Assembly (NCBI GenBank): GCA_964474835.1 | Contig: CAYYUA010000004.1 | Span: 33,848-97,847 of the forward strand | Direction: 5' to 3' | Source: an uncultured Sphingobacteriales bacterium | GTDB lineage: Bacteria; Bacteroidota; Bacteroidia; CAILMK01; CAYYUA01 | DNA length: 64,000 nucleotides | Shown: one piece after another, positions 23,966-59,041 of the stretch | Layout: the number at the start of each line of letters is the position of its first letter | Position numbering within the stretch: position 1 is the stretch's first letter | Program-made: the position numbers and the translations under genes | The notes under the pieces: model-generated | The model's input: the letters and a program-made list of their open reading frames with translations, nothing else | Databases searched by the model: none | Told to the model about the DNA's origin: nothing

Positions 23966-25075
23966 TCATTCCTGGAACACGGTTTCCAGGGTCTTCATCT
24001 TTTCCTCGGTTTCAGCCCACTCATCTTCCGATTTGGAGCCTTTCACGATGCCAGCTCCGGCATATATGCTGGCCTTGTGCGGATGTAGCTCCATACAGCG
24101 AAGGTTAACGTAAAGCTCACTCTTACCACCAGGATGATAAGGCCCTAAAAAGCCAGTGTAAAGCTCCCGGTCAAAGGGCTCCTCATTCCGGATGAAGATC
24201 TTCGTAATCTTATAGGGATACCCGCAGACTGCCGGAGTGGGGTGAAGCTTATTGAGCAGGCTTTTCCACACATCCCTATCGTGCCCATTCAGGCCAGCCG
24301 AATAGAAGGTCTTAATATGACTTAGCTTACCAGCCCGGGTCGTTTGGGGGCCTTCTTTCTGGTAGTCGATAGTCAAAGCGTCAAAGCACGCCTCGATGTA
24401 CTGCGAAACCAGGGCCTGCTCCTGCTCCTCCTTTTCGGTAAAGCCCTCTTCATCGGCTGGGGACTTTGTACCAGCCAGGGCCTCTGTATGGATGGATTGC
24501 TGATCAAAACTTAGCAGCAGCTCCGGAGTGGCCCCAATCCACGTCCCGTATTGAGGCGTGCTGGTCAGCGATATGAAAGCTCCCGGATAATGCTGCACCA
24601 GGTTAAAGAAGTAGCTAAGGGGCTCGAACTCTTCCGGAAGATCCACTACCTTTTTATTGGCGGCTACCACCTTATCGAAGGAACCCGCTTTGATCTGCTC
24701 AATGCCGTAGCGGGCCAGTTTTTTAAAATCATCTTTCTCTAGTCCCTCATCCTGGGGTTCGCGCTGATGCCAGGCTAATTCCGATTCCGCTGTCTCTTCC
24801 TCAAGGGTGAAGACCTGCGTGGGCTCAATAGCAAGAAGCTGATTCTGGTAATTAAAGCTTGCTAACAGAAACGCTTCCTTATCGGGAAGATTATCCATAA
24901 AATAAAACTCGCTCGGACCAAATACAAGGCGAATGGTTTCTTCGTGTGGCAACCGGTACAGCGCAATACCAAAGTTGTTAGCAAGCGCTGCTTTCAGGAT
25001 AGGATTCAGGTTTTCTTCTGAAAGCGAGCCCTGCGGGCTTTCTACACGCATACCTGTTTGTTTTTGTGAGGGCAT
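23966..25075 (-). CDS. menF: Isochorismate synthase
   Basis: Chorismate-binding C-terminal domain (…PTPAVCGYPYK…YAGAGIVKGSKSEDEWAETE…); located upstream of menD. Confidence 0.8.
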   Translation of the reverse strand: MPSQKQTGMRVESPQGSLSEENLNPILKAALANNFGIALYRLPHEETIRLVFGPSEFYFMDNLPDKEAFLLASFNYQNQLLAIEPTQVFTLEEETAESELAWHQREPQDEGLEKDDFKKLARYGIEQIKAGSFDKVVAANKKVVDLPEEFEPLSYFFNLVQHYPGAFISLTSTPQYGTWIGATPELLLSFDQQSIHTEALAGTKSPADEEGFTEKEEQEQALVSQYIEACFDALTIDYQKEGPQTTRAGKLSHIKTFYSAGLNGHDRDVWKSLLNKLHPTPAVCGYPYKITKIFIRNEEPFDRELYTGFLGPYHPGGKSELYVNLRCMELHPHKASIYAGAGIVKGSKSEDEWAETEEKMKTLETVFQE

Positions 25076-48955: not shown

Positions 48956-50821
48956 TTACCGGCCTAAATAAACCAAAAGGACGCTGATGTCAGAAGGCGA
49001 AACCCCACTGATGCGGCTGGCTTGCCCGATGGTTTCGGGGAGCACCTGGTTTAGCTTTTCGCGGCCTTCGGTGGACAACGCCTTGATATCGTCATAGTTG
49101 ATATTCTGGTGGATCGGGATATCCTCAAGCCGGTTCATCTTTTCCACCATTTCCCGCTCTTTGTCAATAAAGCCGCCATACTTCATCTGCACTTCGGCTT
49201 CCTCCAGTATTTCAGCATCAAACTGACCGAAGAATGAGTCAGCTTTTGGCACGTTCTCCCGGAGGGTTTCAACGGTCACTTCAGGTCTTGAAAGAATTTT
49301 TTCCAGCTTATGCTTTTGCTTCACAGGCTGGGAGCCTACAGCTTCCAGCGTAGCGTTGAGCTCCGTTTCCGGAGCGTTCTCCTTCTTCAGAAAGTCCTGT
49401 ATCTGCTGGATGGCTTCTTCCTTTTCCTGTACCCGCCTGTACTGCTCTTCTGAAGCTAAACCAATCTGAAAAGCCAGCGGGGTCAGGCGCAGATCAGCAT
49501 TGTCCTGCCTCAGGAGCATCCGGTATTCGGCCCGGCTGGTAAACATCCGGTACGGTTCGTTAGTACCCTTGTTGATAAGGTCATCAATAAGCACCCCGAT
49601 GTACCCATCAGACCGCTTCAGGACGACCGGGCTCAGGTTCTTGCCTTTGCGGTGGGCATTAATACCGGCCATCAGCCCCTGGCAGCCTGCTTCTTCATAC
49701 CCGGTAGTTCCATTGATCTGTCCAGCAAAGAACAGGTTTTCAACAGGCTTGGTCTCAAGCGAGTGCTTCAGCTGGTGCGGCTGGAAGTAATCGTACTCGA
49801 TGGCGTATCCCGGGCGGAAAAGCTTGGCGTTTTCTAAGCCGGCTACTTTCCGTATAGCTGATTCCTGGATATCGTGCGGCAGGGAGGTGCTAAAACCATT
49901 TACATAGACTTCCACAGTGTCCCAGCCTTCAGGCTCTACAAAAAGCTGATGGCTTTCTTTGTCCTTAAAGCGATCGATTTTGTCTTCAATAGAAGGACAG
50001 TACCGCGGCCCTACACTCTGAATACGCCCGTTAAACATCGGTGAGCGATCAAAGCCTTCCTCCAGGGTCTTGTGCACCTCAGGATTGGTATAGGTGATGT
50101 AGCAGCTCAGCTGGCGCTTGGGTGGCTCAGTTTCAGATGAAAACGAGAATTTGCCGGGAACTTCATCACCCGGCTGCTCTTCCATCTGGCTATAATCGAT
50201 AGACCGGCCGTCAATCCGGGGAGGCGTTCCGGTTTTCATCCGGCCGGTTTCAAAGCCGCGGTCCAGTAACTGCTTGGATAGCCCGGTTACAGCCTTTTCA
50301 CCAGCGCGCCCTCCTCCAAAATTCACATCACCAATGTGGATAAGTCCATTCAGGAAGGTGCCATTGGTGAGGACGACTGAGTTGGCATAAAAAGGGATTC
50401 CGAGTTGGGTCTTAACGCCAACTACCCGGTCTTCATCAAAAATCAGCTCTTTCCCCATTTCCTGCCAGAAATCCACATTCTCGATCTGCTCCAGGGTCAG
50501 CCGCCAGTATTCAGCAAAGCGCATGCGGTCATTCTGGGTGCGGGGACTCCACATAGCCGGGCCTTTAGAGCGGTTGAGCATCCGGTACTGCACCATGCTC
50601 TTATCGGCAACAACTCCGCTCATTCCGCCCATGGCATCGATCTCGCGCACAATCTGCCCCTTGGCAATACCACCCATGGCTGGATTGCACGACATCTGGG
50701 CAATCTTATTCATGTCCATGGTGACCAGAAGAACACTTGAGCCAAGCTTAGCTGCAGCTGCAGCGGCTTCGCAGCCAGCGTGGCCTCCACCGACAACTAT
50801 AACATCGTACTTATCTGGCAT
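48956..50821 (-). CDS. mnmG: tRNA uridine 5-carboxymethylaminomethyl modification enzyme MnmG (GidA)
   Basis: FAD motif DVIVVGGGHAGCEAA; 621 aa; canonical MnmG blocks. Confidence 0.95.
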   Translation of the reverse strand: MPDKYDVIVVGGGHAGCEAAAAAAKLGSSVLLVTMDMNKIAQMSCNPAMGGIAKGQIVREIDAMGGMSGVVADKSMVQYRMLNRSKGPAMWSPRTQNDRMRFAEYWRLTLEQIENVDFWQEMGKELIFDEDRVVGVKTQLGIPFYANSVVLTNGTFLNGLIHIGDVNFGGGRAGEKAVTGLSKQLLDRGFETGRMKTGTPPRIDGRSIDYSQMEEQPGDEVPGKFSFSSETEPPKRQLSCYITYTNPEVHKTLEEGFDRSPMFNGRIQSVGPRYCPSIEDKIDRFKDKESHQLFVEPEGWDTVEVYVNGFSTSLPHDIQESAIRKVAGLENAKLFRPGYAIEYDYFQPHQLKHSLETKPVENLFFAGQINGTTGYEEAGCQGLMAGINAHRKGKNLSPVVLKRSDGYIGVLIDDLINKGTNEPYRMFTSRAEYRMLLRQDNADLRLTPLAFQIGLASEEQYRRVQEKEEAIQQIQDFLKKENAPETELNATLEAVGSQPVKQKHKLEKILSRPEVTVETLRENVPKADSFFGQFDAEILEEAEVQMKYGGFIDKEREMVEKMNRLEDIPIHQNINYDDIKALSTEGREKLNQVLPETIGQASRISGVSPSDISVLLVYLGR

Positions 50822-50823
50822 AG

Positions 50824-51264
50824 TTAGTTAGCATTTAAATGGTTCAAGTAGTGTGATTCCAATCTCCGCATTTCCTCAACCTGGTCATCGGCTTTATCGG
50901 TCAGCCCGCCCAGGTGCAGCACACCGTGGATGACAACGCGGCCAAGTTCATCTTTCACTTGCGTGTTGTAGTGTTGAGCGTTAGCAACCACCCGGCTCAG
51001 GCTAATGTAAAGCTCCCCTTCTATAACCTTGGCTTCTTCACTCAGGTTGAAAGTGATAATATCGGTGTAGTAATCGTGCTGAAGAAAATCCTGGTTAATC
51101 TGCCTCAGTTGCTCATCATCAAGAAAAACCACATTCAAGCTCTTAAGTTGACGGTGAAAATCATCCATAACAGCCCTGATAACCTGCCTTAACCGCTTAA
51201 AGTCAGGGATAAACAGAAAAGCTTCCACCGATTCCTCAAAAAACCTGATCGGGTGGTCTTCCAT
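50824..51264 (-). CDS. ybeY: rRNA maturation endoribonuclease YbeY
   Basis: 146 aa with the Zn-binding HGVLHLGG motif. Confidence 0.85.
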   Translation of the reverse strand: MEDHPIRFFEESVEAFLFIPDFKRLRQVIRAVMDDFHRQLKSLNVVFLDDEQLRQINQDFLQHDYYTDIITFNLSEEAKVIEGELYISLSRVVANAQHYNTQVKDELGRVVIHGVLHLGGLTDKADDQVEEMRRLESHYLNHLNAN

Positions 51265-51270
51265 AAATAT

Positions 51271-53028
51271 TTAGCGTATAACAGTCAGGGTACCAGACTC
51301 GGTAGAAGTTGTCTGGTCAATACCCACGATGGTCATTTTGTAAAAGTATTCGCCCTGCTGAACAGCTTCTCCGTCAGCGGTCCCATCCCAGCCTTGGTTG
51401 AGGTTGTCTGAGCTGTAGACTTCTTCACCCCACCTGTTATAGATCGCCATGGACGAGGCCTCATAATCGATAAAGCGGCCCTGAGGCTTGAATTCACTGT
51501 TAACGCCACCCGGCACGATAGCATTGGGAACGTACACCACCGGGTCATTAAACAGGCAGACAACATTGGACAGCGCTTCTTCCTGATAACCATATTCATT
51601 GTTACCACCTTCTACTGCCTGAATCCGGAAACATGTGCGCCTTTCCTCTGAATCGCGGAATTCATTCAGCTTAGTGTACTCGAGATCATCAGCTCCCACA
51701 GTAGCGAGGGTTTCCCAGTTTTCCACATCGCCAGCCCGCGTCTGGCGCTGAATAAGGTAGTTTTCCACACCACTGTTGAAAACTTCATAAGCTTGCCAGT
51801 TAAGGCGGATAGAATCATCAATAGCCTTAACATCAAGTACCATATTGCGGGCTATGTTGCTGGTTTCCGTGCTGTTGGCACATAAGCCGTTACTCCTTAC
51901 CTGGTAGTAAGTCTCTTCGGCCTGGGGATTGGCAAGGGAATCCCTGATAGTAAAATCCGAACCTGTAACAGGACTAATGCTCCGGAACGTGGCTAATTCC
52001 CCCGGATTGGGTCCCTTTAAAACAGTGATACGCTGTAGTCCGGCGCCATTCTCAACAGAAAACCGGATTTCATTCACACTATCAACCACCGAAACGGCCC
52101 TGAGGTAGGCAAATCCCAACGATCCGGCAGAACCAAGGCGCAGGCTTCGCTGATTAGAGGTAGAGGATGCATCCCCACCTGCTTTCAATGCTCTGATGGA
52201 AACATCATAAGTAAATCCGCCCTCAAGCGTATCGATTACAGCCTCCGTTTCGCTACCATCCACGCTTTCCACGATCTGTGGATTTTCTCCATCTTTAGCG
52301 GCTACAATCCGGTATTCTGCAACATCCCACCCTTTATAGGCCGACCAGTTCAGCTCGATCTTTCGTTCGCAGGTATCCACATCTGGTTCCTGCAGGAATA
52401 TTGAGCTATGCGTATTGACGCTAACGGTGCTCTCATTCATACAGCTGTCGAAGGCGCCTAGGCGGAATTTTTCAACCTGTCCGTCCGGAGCGCTGAGGTC
52501 ATTCTCCGTGTACGAGGTATTCTTATGCCCGAGTACCTGATCAATCTTACGGGTTTGGCCTCCGTCCACATAGTAGATGGTATAGCCCTTAATGGCGGGA
52601 TTAGGATGCGGGGACCACCCAAGCTGAACATTTCCGTTTTTCACGGTTAGCGAGTCCAGTTCCAGCGATGCGGGACGCTCTTTGTCCACACCGATGGTAT
52701 CGGTGTAGGCCTCAGCATCCGGACAGGCCGTGGTGGCTTTGATGTAGTATTGCCACTCATCCAGGTTGTCCGTGTTTCCGGGTACATGCTCGAACTGTTG
52801 CAGATCAGGCTCCTCGAGGGTTTCTACCAATTGAAAAGGCTGGCCGGGGTTGGCCTGCCAGTAAACTTCGTAGGTGAGAAACGCTCCACAGGTATCCGTA
52901 ACAGGGTTAAAATTCAGGGTAAACGTATCGTTACTCTGGCAGATCCGGTAAAGGTTAAACCCTGAGGCCTGTAAACTAAGCAAACTTAGCAGTAAACCCA
53001 CCAATAAGGCACAACGAAACTGACGCAT
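51271..53028 (-). CDS. Secreted FN3/Ig-like repeat protein with a T9SS type-B C-terminal domain (gliding-motility-associated CTD)
   Basis: The C-terminus YVPNAIVPGGVNSEFKPQG…AIYNRWGEEVYSS…GWDGTADGEAVQQGEYFYKMTIVG matches the TIGR04131-type CTD. The signal peptide starts at the internal MRQFRCALLVGLLLSLLSL. Confidence 0.75.
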   Translation of the reverse strand: MRQFRCALLVGLLLSLLSLQASGFNLYRICQSNDTFTLNFNPVTDTCGAFLTYEVYWQANPGQPFQLVETLEEPDLQQFEHVPGNTDNLDEWQYYIKATTACPDAEAYTDTIGVDKERPASLELDSLTVKNGNVQLGWSPHPNPAIKGYTIYYVDGGQTRKIDQVLGHKNTSYTENDLSAPDGQVEKFRLGAFDSCMNESTVSVNTHSSIFLQEPDVDTCERKIELNWSAYKGWDVAEYRIVAAKDGENPQIVESVDGSETEAVIDTLEGGFTYDVSIRALKAGGDASSTSNQRSLRLGSAGSLGFAYLRAVSVVDSVNEIRFSVENGAGLQRITVLKGPNPGELATFRSISPVTGSDFTIRDSLANPQAEETYYQVRSNGLCANSTETSNIARNMVLDVKAIDDSIRLNWQAYEVFNSGVENYLIQRQTRAGDVENWETLATVGADDLEYTKLNEFRDSEERRTCFRIQAVEGGNNEYGYQEEALSNVVCLFNDPVVYVPNAIVPGGVNSEFKPQGRFIDYEASSMAIYNRWGEEVYSSDNLNQGWDGTADGEAVQQGEYFYKMTIVGIDQTTSTESGTLTVIR

Positions 53029-53073
53029 TTCTGGCGTTGCTTTTATTGTGCTAGTATGTAAAACCAACACACC

Positions 53074-53817
53074 ATGAAACATTCTGAACAACCCTCCTCA
53101 CGCGGTATACGGCTAAACCGGTATCTGGCTGAGTGCGGGATTGCATCCCGCCGGAAGGCAGAAGCACTAATTCAGGCTGGCAAAATTAAAGTAAATGGGA
53201 AGACTGTTACAGCCCTCAGTACCCGGGTCACCGCAAGTGACACTGTCAAATACAATGGGCAAACCCTAAAGCAAGAGGCTTCGGTCTACCTTATGCTGAA
53301 TAAGCCCAAGGACACCCTTACCACAAAAAAGGACCATCAGGGCCGCAAAAAGGTTTTTGATCTGCTCACGGATACTCGTTTGCCGGAAGTTTTTGCAGTA
53401 GGGCGCCTTGACCGTAATACATCCGGCATTTTAATCCTTACCAATGATGGTGAGCTTGCCAACCGGCTAATGCACCCTAAGCGGGCCGTAGAGAAAGGCT
53501 ACCAGATAACCGTGGACCAGCCGGTTCCAGCTTCCAGGCTCGAGGCAATGGCGCAGCCCCAGTACGTGGATGATGATTATTTGATTCCGGAGAGCCTTGC
53601 TTTTGCTGACTTTAAGGACCGCAAGCGGTTACTCCTCAGTATCCACTCAGGGCAGAACCGGATTGTTAGGAGAATGTTGACAAAATGGGGATATCGTGTG
53701 AAAAACTTAGACCGGATTTCCTACGCCGGACTGGGGAAAAACAGTCTTAAACCCGCGCAGTGGCGGCATTTAAAAAAGCGTGAGGTCAATATGTTGAAAA
53801 ATAAGGCCGGTTTGTAG
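53074..53817 (+). CDS. rluB: rRNA pseudouridine synthase, RsuA/RluB family
   Basis: An S4 domain (IRLNRYLAECGIASRRKAEALIQAGKIKVNGK) plus a catalytic Asp block (FAVGRLDRNTSGILILTNDG). Confidence 0.85.
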   Translation: MKHSEQPSSRGIRLNRYLAECGIASRRKAEALIQAGKIKVNGKTVTALSTRVTASDTVKYNGQTLKQEASVYLMLNKPKDTLTTKKDHQGRKKVFDLLTDTRLPEVFAVGRLDRNTSGILILTNDGELANRLMHPKRAVEKGYQITVDQPVPASRLEAMAQPQYVDDDYLIPESLAFADFKDRKRLLLSIHSGQNRIVRRMLTKWGYRVKNLDRISYAGLGKNSLKPAQWRHLKKREVNMLKNKAGL

Positions 53818-53837
53818 CGTCCACATTATCCCCTACT

Positions 53838-54116
53838 TTTTCCACAACTTTTTAACTGGTTTTGAACATTACATAGCTATTGTAAACTATCCACACCGTC
53901 CACCCGGGGATGTTAACTGGAATTGTGGAAAACTGCCTTTAATAGCCCGCATAGGGGTTTTAGCCTGTGGACGGCTTGTGGAAAACTTGTTTTCCTGTTG
54001 AGTTCTCCGGAAGTGACCAAAACAATAACCGTTTTCTTTTCCGCAAGTCCACATCCCTGATGATGCTGATGAGGGTTTTTTAAATTCCTTTAGATCTTAT
54101 ACACAGGTGTGGAAAA
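53838..54116. promoter_or_regulatory. DnaA-box cluster with an AT-rich tract (candidate oriC, DnaA-titration site, or DnaA-regulated promoter)
   Basis: Four perfect TTTTCCACA 9-mers: 53838-53846 on the + strand; 53924-53932, 53977-53985 and 54108-54116 on the - strand. In addition there are CTATCCACA at 53887-53895, TTTTCCGCA at 54037-54045, and weaker GTCCACA sites. A ~70% AT stretch at 53846-53890 lies between the first two boxes. Confidence 0.5.
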
Positions 54117-54190
54117 CTAAACGTAAGCAGGCAGGCTGCCTGAACAATTGAAAAATGGGCGGTTTATTGTTACATTTGCTATAAGCAAAA

Positions 54191-54217
54191 GAGGGGACAT
54201 GGGTCCCCTTTTTTATT
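54191..54217 (+). terminator. Intrinsic-terminator-like hairpin (AGGGGAC-ATGG-GTCCCCT followed by a T6ATT tract) 20 nt upstream of the rimP start codon
   Basis: A 7-bp GC-rich stem with a 4-nt loop and a U-tract. A TAnnTTTG Bacteroidota -7 element (TACATTTG, 54174-54181) lies just upstream. Confidence 0.5.
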
Positions 54218-54238
54218 GGTATAGTAGACTGGTATCAG

Positions 54239-54658
54239 ATGAAAGCCGATCTTGAGGCCTACTTGACAGCAAACCTTCCGGCCGATATCTTCGTGGTGGA
54301 CATTGTGGTCAGTAAAAACAACAACCACATCAATGTCTACCTGGATGGGGATGCCGGTTTGAATGTGGATACTTGTGGAAAAGTAAGCCGCAAACTTGAA
54401 GCCTGGCTGGATGAAGCCGATCAAATTCCACAGCAATACACCCTGAATGTAAGCTCAGCCGGGGTTGATCAGCCACTGAATAAAAGACGCCAGTTCAGGA
54501 AAAACGTGAACCGGAACCTTAAGGTTAGAACTTCAACAACAGCATACAGCGGCAAGCTTGTCCTTATCGATAACGACAACCTGGTGCTGAAGACTGATAA
54601 GCGGAAAACCGTGCCTCTGGCTTTTGAGGATGTGAAAGACGCCAGAGTTGAAATTTAA
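54239..54658 (+). CDS. rimP: Ribosome maturation factor RimP
   Basis: 139 aa; first gene of the canonical rimP-nusA-infB arrangement. Confidence 0.85.
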   Translation: MKADLEAYLTANLPADIFVVDIVVSKNNNHINVYLDGDAGLNVDTCGKVSRKLEAWLDEADQIPQQYTLNVSSAGVDQPLNKRRQFRKNVNRNLKVRTSTTAYSGKLVLIDNDNLVLKTDKRKTVPLAFEDVKDARVEI

Positions 54659-54671
54659 AAGTGCTTAGACG

Positions 54672-55910
54672 ATGAATGTAGATGAGTTAAGAGAGTCATT
54701 TGCGGACTTCAGAGAATTCAAAAATGTGGATCGTGCTACCATGATGCGCGTTCTGGAGGAAGTTTTCCGCAACATGCTTAGAAAGAAGTACGGCACGGAT
54801 GAAAACTTTGATATCATTATCAATGTAGAAAAAGGAGATATTGAGGTCTGGCAGAACCGGACCATCGTAGAAGATGGAAAGGTCACAGACGAAACTTCGG
54901 AGGTAGAGCTTTCGGAGGCTGTGAAGGTAGAGCCAGACTTTGAGGTTGGCGAGGATCTGTCTGAAGAGGTCAAGTTGGCTTCTTTTGGCCGGCGGGCTAT
55001 CATGGCCGCCCGGCAGAATCTGATCAACAAGATTCTTGAGCTGCAGAAGGAAGAAGTGTTTAACCTGTACCAGGATCGTATCGGGGAGATCGTTTCAGGT
55101 GAGGTTTACCAGGTATGGCGGAAAGAGCTTTTGGTGCTGGATGATGAGGGCAACGAACTCATCCTGCCGAAAGAGGAGATGATACCGCGGGATTTCTTCA
55201 AGAAAGGGGATACCCTTCGCGCTGTCGTTAAGAGCGTGGACACCCGGAACTCGGCTCCGCTTATCCTTCTCTCCCGGACTGCTCCTGATTTTCTGGAACG
55301 CTTGTTTGAACTGGAGGTCCCGGAAATCGCCGATGGCTTGATAACCATCCACAAAATTGTGAGAGAGCCAGGCGAGCGGGCCAAAGTCGCTGTTGAATCC
55401 TATGACGACCGCATCGATCCAGTTGGAGCCTGTGTAGGGATGAAGGGCTCCAGAATTCACGGTATTGTTCGTGAGCTGCGGAATGAGAATATCGATGTTA
55501 TCAACTATACCACGAATACGCGGTTGTATATTAGCAGGGCACTAAGCCCGGCACGCGTAAGTACTGTGGATCTGGATGAAGAGAATAACAAAGCGGATGT
55601 CTACCTTAAATCCGATAGTGTTTCATTAGCTATTGGCAAGGGTGGCCTGAACATTAAGCTGGCCGCAAAGCTTACTGATTATGAGATAGATGTGTTCCGG
55701 GAAACTGATGGTGACGACTACGATATCGACCTGGATGAATTTAGCGATGAACTGGAAGGCTGGATTCTGGATGAGCTGAAGGAGATCGGCTGTGATTCAG
55801 CCAAGAGTGTGTTGGAACTATCAATTGAGGAATTGGTTAGACGAACTAACCTTGAGGAAGAGACGATAAAGGAAGTCTTATCGGTGCTGAATGCCGAATT
55901 TGAGCAATAA
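54672..55910 (+). CDS. nusA: Transcription termination/antitermination factor NusA
   Basis: S1 and KH domains (GxxG: IGKGGLNIKLA) and the N-terminal RNAP-binding domain. Confidence 0.95.
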   Translation: MNVDELRESFADFREFKNVDRATMMRVLEEVFRNMLRKKYGTDENFDIIINVEKGDIEVWQNRTIVEDGKVTDETSEVELSEAVKVEPDFEVGEDLSEEVKLASFGRRAIMAARQNLINKILELQKEEVFNLYQDRIGEIVSGEVYQVWRKELLVLDDEGNELILPKEEMIPRDFFKKGDTLRAVVKSVDTRNSAPLILLSRTAPDFLERLFELEVPEIADGLITIHKIVREPGERAKVAVESYDDRIDPVGACVGMKGSRIHGIVRELRNENIDVINYTTNTRLYISRALSPARVSTVDLDEENNKADVYLKSDSVSLAIGKGGLNIKLAAKLTDYEIDVFRETDGDDYDIDLDEFSDELEGWILDELKEIGCDSAKSVLELSIEELVRRTNLEEETIKEVLSVLNAEFEQ

Positions 55911-55924
55911 GGGGAAGTTGATAT

Positions 55925-58900
55925 ATGCCAGAAACTAAAACACCAAAGAGGTTACAACGGGTAGCAAAAGACCTGAACGTGGCTACCACCACTATTAAGG
56001 AATACCTGCAAAAGCAGGGCATTGATGTCGGGACAAACCCCAATATCAAGCTATCCGAGGAAACCTATGAGCTCTTGCTCGAGAAGTTCCAGACAGATAA
56101 GCAGGCCAGGGAAAAGGCAGAGCAAGTTGTGTTACCCGGCTCCGAGAAAAAGAGCCAGAAAAAAGAGGAAGAGGCTACCTCAACCCAATCGCCCAGTAAA
56201 TCCCAGGAAGCAGAAGAATCTACACAAGCAGATACCTCATCCCCTGCTGGAAAAGAAGAAGAAGCTGGTACAACTCAGGCTGAAGCATCACAAACTGTAA
56301 CTGAGGAGCAACCACCTCAGGAAACAGCCGGGCAGGAAGGCGATGAAACAGCAACTGACGAACCGGCATCAGGGCAAGCGGACGAAAGCACCCAGCCATC
56401 GGAGGAAAGCAGTGAAACCCAGAATGGGCCCAAGGTTCTTGGAAAAATAGATGTTGATCAGCTAGACACTTCAAAGAAAAAGAAGTCCGGAAAGAAGTCA
56501 GCTGATAAGGATACCAAGCAAAAAGCACCAGCAGCTAGCAACGAACAAGCTGAGCAACCGGAAGAGCCTGTTACTGCCGGTCAGTCCGGTCAGCAGCAGC
56601 CAGGTGAGGAAGAAGAGGTTACCCAGGAAGTAGTAACAGAAGAAGAAACCAACCCAGAAAGTGATACGGAAGGGGTTTCCGATACTGATACCGCTCAGGA
56701 AACAGAAGATACAGCAGACCAACAGGCTGAAGCGCCTGATACAACTGAAGCTGAAACCCCGCCGGAAGAACAAGCTGACGACTCCTCGCAAAAAGCCCCT
56801 GAAGCGCAGAAAGGTGAGGAAGCTTCAGAAACCGTATCCAAGAAAGAAGATTACAGCCTGAGTGGCCCCACTGTGGTTGGAAAAATTGACCTTGATCAGG
56901 TCAAATCCAATAAGCCCAAGAAGAAAGAGCCCGTTGCATCTACCTCGGATATGTCCACTACCCGTAAAAAGCGGCGTAAGCGGAGACCTGTAAAAGGTGA
57001 AGAAGGGGAAAAGGCAGCCGACTCAACCAAGCAGGGAGATAAAGCGGCTAAAAAGGACACAGACAAAGCTGCTCCTGAAAAGCAGAAGGCCCAGCCCAAA
57101 AAGAAAGGCAAGAAGAAACAGGATAAAGAAGAGATTGACAGTAGCCAGGTACAAGAGCAGCTAAAGGAAACGCTCAACAAGCTATCTGGCGGCAACAAGT
57201 CCAGCCGCTCCAAATTCCGTAAGAAGAAGCGGGATGAAGAGCGGCAGCGGGAAGAAGCCCGTCAGGAAGAAATTGCTGAGAGCGAAAAGAACAAGCTTGA
57301 GGTGACGGAATTCATTACCGTTAACGAGCTGGCAAACCTTATGGATGTGCAGGTAACCGAGCTTATCGGTACCTGTATGAACATTGGTATCATGGTCAGC
57401 ATGAATCAGCGTATTGATGCCGAGACCATTACCGTCCTGGCTGATGAGTACGGCTATGATGTCGAGTTCACGGAAGCCGAGATGGACGAGCCTGCTCTGG
57501 AAGAGGAGGATAATCCGGAAAATTATACCCAAAAGCCGCCCGTTGTTAGTATCATGGGTCACGTTGACCACGGTAAGACGTCACTGCTTGACTACATCCA
57601 GGGGTCTAAGATCATTGCTGGTGAGTCCGGCAGCATTACTCAGCACATCGGGGCTTACGAAATTACCCTGCAGGATAACCGCAACATCACTTTCCTTGAC
57701 ACACCGGGGCACGAGGCCTTCACAGCCATGCGTGCGCGCGGAGCTAAAGCTACAGATGTTGCGATCATCATTATAGCAGCCGATGATGATATTAAGCCAC
57801 AGACCAAAGAGGCCATTAGCCACGCTCAGGCAGCGGGTGTGCCGATGATATTTGCCATCAACAAGGTAGATAAAGAGGGAGCCAGCCCGGACCGTATCCG
57901 CCAGCAACTGGCTGAAATGAACATCCTTGTGGAAGAATGGGGTGGCAAGTACCAGTCACAAGAGATCTCAGCTAAGCACGGGGATCAGGTTGATGACCTG
58001 CTTGAGAAAGTGCTGCTGGAAGCCGAACTGTTAGACCTGAAAGCAGACCCTGAAAAGCGGGCAGCTGGAACGGTTGTAGAGGCCTGGCTGGACAAAGGCA
58101 AGGGCTACGTTACCAACCTGCTGGTAGAGGGCGGAACCCTCCAGGTAGGCGATCCGGTGCTTGCCGGTGCTAACATGGCCCGTATCCGGGCAATGATGGA
58201 TGAGCGGGGCAACCGTATCCAGAAGGCAAAGCCCGGTACTCCGGTTCAGGTATTAGGGTTTGATGGTGCACCACAAGCAGGAGAACGCTTTTACGTGGCT
58301 GAAGAAGAACAAACTGCCAAGGAAATTGCGAATGAGCGCGCCCAGCTGATTCGCGAACAGGGCATCCGGGCGACCAAGCATGTAACACTTGATGAACTTG
58401 GCCGCCGCTTAGCCATCGGTAATTTCCAGGAACTCAATGTTGTGATCAAAGGTGACGTTGATGGCTCAATAGAAGCGATTGCTGACTCGCTTCAGAAGCT
58501 TTCTACTGAAGAAGTTCAGATTAATGTTATCCACAAGGGTGTTGGCCAGATATCAGAATCGGACGTTCTGCTGGCTTCTGCCTCAGATGCTATCATTGTT
58601 GGCTTCCAAGTCCGGCCCTCTTCCAATGCGCGCAGATTAGCAGACCAGGAGCAGATCGATCTTCGCCTTTACTCCGTTATTTACGATGCCGTCCAGGAGG
58701 TCAAGTCGGCTATGGAAGGCATGCTAAAACCAAGGGTAGAAGAGAAGATTGTCGGAAATGTTGAAGTCCGGCAGGTCTTTAAGGTATCCAAGGTTGGCAC
58801 AGTAGCTGGCTCGAAGGTGACAAGTGGAAAGATCACTCGTAACGCTAAGGTTCGGGTTATCCGGGAAGGCGTTGTAGTTCATACCGGTGAAATTGATACC

Positions 58901-59041
58901 CTGAAGCGTTACAAGGATGACGTGAAGGAAGTCGCCTCCGGTTACGAATGCGGGCTGAATATCAAGAACTTCAATGATATACAGGAAGGTGACTACTTAG
59001 AGGTCTACGAAGAGTACGAAGTCAAGCGTTCACTTAACTAG
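55925..59041 (+). CDS. infB: Translation initiation factor IF-2
   Basis: G-domain motifs [17 protein letters not shown] and NKVD. It has a ~430-aa low-complexity E/K/Q/T-rich N-terminal region. Confidence 0.95.

Follow-up and report, generated by a model that had tools for sequence, protein, structure and literature searches.

A candidate chromosomal replication origin upstream of rimP in an uncultured Bacteroidota lineage

The non-coding spacer that separates an RsuA/RluB/RluF-family pseudouridine synthase gene (stop codon ending at 53817) from rimP (ATG at 54239) is probably the origin (oriC) from which an uncultured Bacteroidota lineage replicates its chromosome, and would be of the ordinary DnaA-dependent type. 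This spacer of 421 bp lies within a 64-kb stretch of contig CAYYUA010000004.1 (hereafter the window), of which only 10 kb extend to its right. It is distinguished by an exceptional density of DnaA boxes, by purifying selection, and by a module of conserved geometry with a low-stability tract that is independent of the rimP promoter. A first-pass annotation had put the spacer forward as a candidate replication origin; this is the best-supported explanation (on account of the selection on box cores and the conserved module), and the raw skew signal of the window is lost at fourfold-degenerate sites.

The box array, which we take to delimit the candidate oriC (53817-54116, about 300 bp), consists of eleven sites, namely four exact copies of TTTTCCACA and seven weaker DnaA-type boxes or, when counted by their similarity to TTATCCACA, six boxes with at most one mismatch and five weaker ones. 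The exact copies, all of them confirmed as previously annotated, occupy 53838-53846 on the plus strand and 53924-53932, 53977-53985 and 54108-54116 on the minus strand; CTATCCACA (53887-53895, plus strand) and TTTTCCGCA (54037-54045, plus strand) were likewise found where they had been placed. The other sites are GCGTCCACA (53817-53825, plus strand), which overlaps the synthase stop codon; CCGTCCACC (53896-53904, plus strand), in tandem with the box at 53887; CCGTCCACA (53966-53974, minus strand), in tandem (11-bp spacing) with the box at 53977; AAGTCCACA (54045-54053, plus strand), the downstream member of a conserved tandem pair of which the box at 54037 is the upstream member; and TTATACACA (54097-54105, plus strand), which stands head-to-head with the inverted box at 54108. 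An intact GTCCAC core is present in four of the weaker sites (53817, 53896, 53966 on the minus strand, and 54045), and three box pairs are arranged in tandem, with a spacing of 8-11 bp. The extended repeat that had been described around the exact copies applies to part of them: the repeat finder recovered TTGTGGAAAACT / GTGTGGAAAACT for the three minus-strand copies and not for the plus-strand one.

Such a concentration of boxes is unusual by each of the backgrounds used. In the window TTTTCCACA occurs ten times (0.67 expected), a count that none of 100 dinucleotide-preserving shuffles of the 64 kb reached, and four of these ten copies fall within the 421-bp spacer; the looser consensus TTWTNCACA is found 19 times against 4.5 expected. 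As an empirical control we made use of 163 unrelated Bacteroidota loci (2.05 Mb), in which the maximum was three boxes with at most one mismatch to TTATCCACA per 421 bp, as compared with six in the spacer. The motif also occurs elsewhere, with six copies of TTTTCCACA (about ten times expectation) outside the spacer, all of them intragenic (among them those at 24262, 27809, 37230, 51719 and 51761). Boxes with at most one mismatch are also more frequent in the remainder of the window than in the controls (0.63 vs 0.33 per kb), with the highest density at 36-52 kb (16 boxes in 16 kb); the excess could stem from codon usage or from a genuine concentration of boxes close to the origin. Inside rimP, the tandem boxes GTATCCACA and TTTTCCACA (54364-54382, minus strand) encode part of the conserved RimP peptide VDTCGK (TGT GGA AAA = Cys-Gly-Lys), and coding constraint alone may explain them; they were not counted as origin elements, given that this peptide, kept in the relatives, accounts for their presence. 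The idea that TTTTCCACA is a mere genome-wide repeat, which the first-pass annotation had allowed for, does not stand, since the density in the spacer is above that of every control stretch despite the six intragenic copies.

The window was aligned with six contigs of the same species (seven strains in total) in order to follow variation within the spacer. Variable columns amount to 33 of 421 (7.8%), as compared with 3.3-6.1% for the third codon positions of the genes on either side, and thus the greater part of the spacer changes no more slowly than synonymous sites do. In contrast to its surroundings, none of the 66 box-core positions (TCCACA) varies across the seven strains (hypergeometric P = 0.003); as judged from this alignment, the box cores are under purifying selection. 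The variable positions inside boxes number four and are confined to box positions 2-3, which are the known degenerate ones: the box at 53838, TTTTCCACA in the window, reads TTATCCACA in each of the six other strains (a difference at the W position only), the one at 53887 varies at positions 2-3 only (CTG.., CGG..) and retains an invariant TCCACA core, and the weak box at 53896 varies at position 2 only. The sites at 53817, 53924, 54037, 54045 and 54097 are invariant. In its pattern, this in-box variation is as expected of DnaA boxes (TTWTNCACA) and unlike that of an arbitrary repeat.

The right half of the array contains an unwinding-type module, composed (in order) of the tandem boxes at 54037-54053, 3 nt, a run of NTN triplets (54057-54071), an AT-rich tract (54072-54104) and the inverted box at 54108-54116, by which the tract is closed. 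The triplets read CTG ATG ATG CTG ATG on the top strand, which corresponds on the bottom (minus) strand to 3'-GAC TAC TAC GAC TAC-5', a DnaA-trio-like run whose first triplet lies 11 bp from the upstream box and whose first four triplets (from 54057) are invariant in the seven strains. The stretch 54072-54100 is free to change in sequence (seven variable columns among the strains), yet it keeps its AT-rich composition. By nearest-neighbour calculation the tract at 54072-54104 is a candidate DNA-unwinding element, with 54075-54104 being the least stable 30-bp window within 53000-55000; we regard 54057-54104, which adjoins the tandem boxes at 54037-54053, as the likely unwinding element. A single AGATCT occurs in the tract (54092-54097), where other strains have AAACTT or AGACTT. 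This 6-mer is the so-called ATP-DnaA box of enterobacterial origins, and it is probably not functional here because it is polymorphic among the strains.

A graded series of relatives was recovered by a NusA homologue search, and the genomic context was compared for several of its members: L087 (93% NusA identity), L088 and L089 (both 83%), L090 (77%) and L093 (74%). Three further relatives at 73-74% identity (P0050, P0033 and P0047), among which the upstream gene order differs, were left out of the module comparison. The order mnmG-ybeY-CHU_C-synthase-[400-500 bp]-rimP-nusA-infB is kept in L087, L088, L089 and L090. The spacers themselves align poorly (54% mean column identity, with many gaps) and have one block in common, which is the module: a 9-mer and an 8-mer box, 3 nt, triplets, AT-rich tract and inverted box are found in all five relatives, that is, over NusA identities of 93-74%. 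The counterparts of the box at 54037-54045 read TTTTCC(G/C)C(A/T) in L087, L088, L089 and L093 and ATTTACCCA in L090, and are directly followed in all five by counterparts of the 54046-54053 box, nnnT(C/T)CAC(A/T). The triplets from 54057 have the consensus CT(A/G) ATG (A/G)T(A/G), with CTA ATG (A/G)TA or CTA ATA ATA in four relatives; these four thus begin with CTA (3'-GAT-5'), the preferred trio, and in L090 the run is GAT TAT TAT (3' to 5'). The equivalent of the inverted box at 54108-54116, TGTGGAAA(A/T), is TGTGGAAAA, TGTGGAAAT or TGTGAATAG in L087, L088, L089 and L093. Outside the module, the box at 53924 is present in L087, the site homologous to the weak box at 53966 is a perfect TTATCCACA in the same relative, and the box at 53977 is conserved in position in L087, in L088 and, as a degenerate copy, in L089.

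The stability profile is conserved as well. The AT-rich tract of the module reaches 87-90% AT in the relatives (vs 70% in the window), and the least stable 30-bp window is located at +31 to +42 from the start of the module in five of the six lineages, with L090 having it tied for first place (scan of 1.6-2 kb per spacer). The first-pass annotation had likened the AT tract on the left side of the spacer (53846-53890) to an unwinding element. This tract (53847-53886) is real, with 33% GC, and it has a counterpart in all five relatives as a second, weaker low-stability region at -132 to -186 from the module; it was rejected as the main unwinding element because it has no adjoining box pair or trio run and ranks third among the least stable 30-bp windows of 53000-55000.

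Farther away in the phylum, no box cluster was present near nusA in 80 loci of other Bacteroidota families (from the NusA scan of 185,579 species genomes), and none was present near related synthase genes (42-48% identical) in 80 loci among the matches listed in a metagenome scan. On these comparisons the module is conserved across a family-level clade and absent from more distant families. The presence of the array at the same gene junction in related genomes, which had been proposed as a check, was in this way borne out for the module, which is there in five relatives; consensus boxes thin out at 77-83% NusA identity.

The module is also separable from the expression signals of rimP. A Bacteroidetes-type promoter (-33 element TTGAAA at 54148-54153, -7 element TACATTTG at 54171-54178) precedes rimP in the window and is common to all relatives; within about 10 nt of it, and about 25 nt before the rimP ATG, lies a strong hairpin with a T-run (54187-54214; GAGGGGAC-loop-GTCCCCTC-TTTTTT). 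A natural rearrangement in L093 (on a 449-kb contig) has set the two apart, with a gene for a 1512-aa PKD/CHU_C protein, sorted via type IX secretion (T9SS), situated between synthase and rimP (L093:4571-9560). There, the module stays in the 362-bp spacer that follows the synthase gene, rimP is 4.5 kb away, and the promoter and leader hairpin occupy a 90-bp spacer before rimP that is devoid of boxes. Considering this separation, together with the lack of a cluster upstream of rimP or near synthases elsewhere, the module appears to be an independent, clade-specific element which does not serve rimP regulation. The earlier suggestion of a DnaA-regulated rimP promoter fails on the same grounds, i.e. 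the box-free promoter and leader of L093 and the absence of a cluster upstream of rimP in 80 Bacteroidota loci.

The rimP leader hairpin deserves mention in its own right. In at least 33 of 71 distant Bacteroidota loci, from Flavobacteriales, Pedobacter and Chitinophagales, rimP is preceded at a distance of 20-57 nt by the same stem sequence and T-run, with variable loops and with a seventh pair that covaries (A-T, T-A, G-C, C-G). No Rfam family matches the hairpin, which may act as a leader terminator in NusA autoregulation, by analogy with the nusA operons of E. coli and B. subtilis.

Other identities of the spacer were explored and found wanting. A permissive Rfam scan of 53000-55000 yielded chance-level matches only (none better than E = 2.5 inside the spacer), RNAalifold gave 0 pairs in the conserved core of the six lineages, and the single-sequence fold of the spacer compared with shuffles had z = -1.0; on these results, a structured RNA gene was rejected. 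By BLAST, the spacer had no similarity to plasmids or phages.

Among described systems, the closest in layout is the basal unwinding system of Pelliciari et al. (PMC8287927), in which a DnaA box (at most two mismatches), usually accompanied by a weaker tandem second box (at most four mismatches in the search criteria), is followed by three or more triplets whose middle base is A (3' to 5'), the first of them no more than 16 bp away and most often, as counted from the better box, at 10-13 bp. The survey table of that study is written 3' to 5', and thus the top-strand order is TTATCCACA-type box, spacer, NTN triplets (PMC8287927). Its entry for Salinibacter ruber (Bacteroidetes), TTATCCACA-TTTCCACA-CGA-CTA ATA ATA, has the same layout of 9-mer, 8-mer and 3 nt as the window, and its triplets, GAT TAT TAT, are those of L090. 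With this system (B. subtilis incC and the PMC8287927 survey) the window shares the tandem boxes (TTTTCCGCA with two mismatches, AAGTCCACA with three), the 11 bp between the better box and the first triplet, the minimum of three triplets (five NAN triplets here) and the AT-rich tract. It differs in having GAC/TAC triplets, a C-to-G change in the better box (TTTTCCGCA) and an inverted box pair that closes the AT-rich tract.

The oriC of E. coli (gidA-oriC-mioC) lies apart from dnaA and near mnmG/gidA, and has 9-mer boxes in both orientations beside an AT-rich unwinding element. The window resembles it in the distant dnaA, the close mnmG/gidA, the array of 9-mers in both orientations and the AT-rich element, and departs from it in that mnmG is set off by 3 kb and three genes, that 13-mer repeats are lacking, and that the sole AGATCT is polymorphic. 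The gidA/mnmG gene is an accepted origin-proximal indicator in Ori-Finder (PMC2275245), and Bacteroidetes origins are reported to lie commonly at a distance from dnaA (PMC4755523). The use of TTTTCCACA as a DnaA box has precedents in cyanobacterial and chlamydial origins (PMC3531139; PMC2275245), where it is likewise preferred over TTATCCACA; these belong to other phyla and have other flanking genes (dnaN in cyanobacteria), and the lineage of the window uses both variants interchangeably. Within the phylum, the origins of Prevotella intermedia (predicted) and Cytophaga hutchinsonii are similar, as likened by description only, in being intergenic box clusters far from dnaA (PMC4755523), the latter being reported as experimentally confirmed with oriC plasmids (PMC3531139).

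From these features we infer DnaA binding, unwinding and replication start at the spacer, and a plausible course of initiation can be outlined. DnaA would occupy the array of TTWTCCACA-type boxes, with the tandem pair at 54037-54053 acting as the platform for a DnaA oligomer. The oligomer would extend from this platform onto the bottom-strand NAN triplets (54057-54071) and open the AT-rich tract (54072-54104), the far side of which would be bounded by the head-to-head box pair at 54097-54116; the boxes further left (53817-53985) would help to build up the initiation complex.

A number of observations weigh against the spacer being an origin, and several of them concern strand composition. Raw GC skew, cumulated along the window, is lowest at 52-54 kb, as the check proposed in the first-pass annotation would have it; this minimum vanishes at fourfold-degenerate sites (plus strand), where the left arm has a skew of +0.021 and the right arm (10 kb) one of -0.047, without an origin-type switch. 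The raw minimum hence reflects the purine-rich coding strands of nusA/infB rather than replication, and it was discarded as support for the origin. When the window and the five relatives were taken together (10 kb on each side), the strand-by-side interaction had the origin-type sign both for GC (0.066 +/- 0.042, not significant) and for AT (-0.134 +/- 0.042, significant only by way of the same few orthologous genes in each relative); the window alone displays no such pattern, and no strand-skewed oligomers were found among the 8-mers of the left arm. Also unfavourable is the result of the motif scan, which found no DnaA signature in the 64-kb window (in agreement with the earlier statement that dnaA is outside it); neither dnaA nor dnaN is nearby. 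As for the module, its triplets in the window are GAC/TAC rather than the preferred GAT, its AT-rich tract reaches no more than 70% AT in this species, L093 reads CTG ACT TAA and thereby fails the three-NTN rule, and consensus boxes are sparser in the relatives at 77-83% identity, to the extent that the spacer of L090 has none with at most one mismatch. The published criteria of the unwinding system are, moreover, permissive (a box followed by five NTN triplets occurs 0.16 times per kb in the controls). A more stringent pattern (two boxes in tandem, then no more than 5 nt, three or more NTN triplets and an AT share of 65% or above over the following 30 nt) has the site at 54037 as its sole match in the 64-kb window (both strands) and also matches the homologous sites of L087 and L088; its frequency in the controls (20 matches in 2.05 Mb, or about 0.004 expected per 421 bp) overstates the significance, the pattern having been composed after the module was seen. 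Gene orientation (26 of 40 genes on the minus strand to the left, five of seven on the plus strand to the right) is compatible with an origin, if weakly so.

As separate observations on the oligomer content of the window, TGATCA occurs 49 times against about 16 expected under uniform composition, and the most frequent 9-mer is GCTGATCAA/TTGATCAGC, with 13 copies and no strand bias.

The array might instead be a DnaA-box cluster that is not an origin, that is, a titration or recycling site which would hold many DnaA molecules and tune initiation while replication begins elsewhere, an explanation that we consider unlikely, albeit worth serious attention. E. coli datA/DARS and the DnaA-box clusters of B. 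subtilis are DnaA-binding box clusters outside genes, and in this respect the spacer is comparable to them. The box density and the selection on box cores would fit any functional DnaA-binding array, and the absence of a compositional switch at fourfold-degenerate sites, the distant dnaA and the enrichment of boxes across the rest of the window (0.63 vs 0.33 per kb in controls) would all be at home in such a site. What it leaves unexplained is the unwinding geometry, as the register of box pair, trio and AT-tract is the most conserved feature across the clade, and the maintenance of a non-coding spacer of 400-500 bp in lineages of very different GC content also speaks against it. Neither a conserved trio run nor an unwinding tract that keeps register with a box pair is described for the datA/DARS and B. 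subtilis clusters, and the window has both; to our knowledge, titration sites of this kind do not require box pair, trio and low-stability tract in a fixed register. A variant to which we give still less credence would have the cluster, equipped with an unwinding-type module of its own, act as a datA/DARS-like regulator of initiation and not as an origin; as it lies directly upstream of the rimP-nusA-infB operon, DnaA occupancy could be linked to the expression of these genes for ribosome maturation and translation initiation. We know of no datA/DARS-like site in Bacteroidota.

It is quite improbable that the spacer serves regulation, with rimP-nusA-infB or the upstream synthase gene being transcribed under the control of DnaA or of some other TGTGGAAAA-recognising factor. 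DnaA acts as a transcription factor in other bacteria, and the last box (54108-54116) precedes the conserved -33 element (54148-54153) by about 30 bp. Conversely, the rimP promoter and leader hairpin of L093 lie 4.5 kb from the module and without boxes, no cluster accompanies the 80 other Bacteroidota nusA loci or (among the matches listed) the 80 related-synthase loci, and eleven sites over 300 bp with an AT-rich tract in register far exceed the needs of an operator. With regard to the identity of the factor, the switch between TTTTCCACA and TTATCCACA and the perfect TTATCCACA of L087 point to DnaA rather than to another protein. Finally, chance or a genome-wide repeat without local function, to which the six further intragenic TTTTCCACA copies and the explanation of the rimP tandem pair by a conserved peptide would be congenial, is effectively refuted by the shuffles (0 of 100 reaching the observed TTTTCCACA count), by the control loci (none reaching the local box density), by cores that stay invariant while the surrounding spacer outpaces synonymous sites, and by the positional conservation of the sites across relatives.

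The genes around the candidate origin are, on its left side, mnmG/gidA (48956-50821, minus strand), ybeY (50824-51264, minus strand), a gene for a protein with a T9SS C-terminal sorting domain (CHU_C; 51271-53091, minus strand) and the synthase gene (53074-53817, plus strand) and, on its right side, rimP, nusA and infB (54239-59041, plus strand). The synthase, annotated earlier as rluB, belongs to the RsuA/RluB/RluF family and passes the subfamily model, but it fails the RluB equivalog cut-off, so that the name is only approximate. The longest open reading frames of the synthase and of the divergent T9SS-domain gene (TTG start) overlap at their 5' ends by 18 bp (53074-53091), and gene callers place the synthase start differently on other contigs (174 aa vs 247 aa); thus, one of the two starts is probably mis-assigned.

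The window is a piece of a metagenome contig, and the lineage is common in metagenomes: a NusA identical to that of the window was found on 30 metagenome contigs (JGI, ENA and Logan assemblies), and contigs of the same species reach 249 kb. Among the 185,579 species genomes, the best NusA identity is 71% (Flavobacteriales, Crocinitomicaceae metagenome-assembled genomes), meaning that no close relative is present there; metagenome-assembled genomes at NCBI with 83% NusA identity are GCA_964595485.1 and GCA_964549595.1.

An oriC had not been annotated in this lineage before, and what is offered here is a useful annotation of a standard bacterial design, by which the general understanding of replication origins is left unchanged. 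If the spacer is indeed oriC, it would fix the origin of an uncultured clade of Bacteroidota without a close relative in the 185,579 species genomes searched, and the analysis of replichores and the estimation of growth rates from metagenomic read depth would gain a reference point. With its evidence of selection at strain level, it would further be a comparative example of the module of box pair, trio and AT-rich tract at work in Bacteroidota, whose origins lie far from dnaA and have in few cases been tested.

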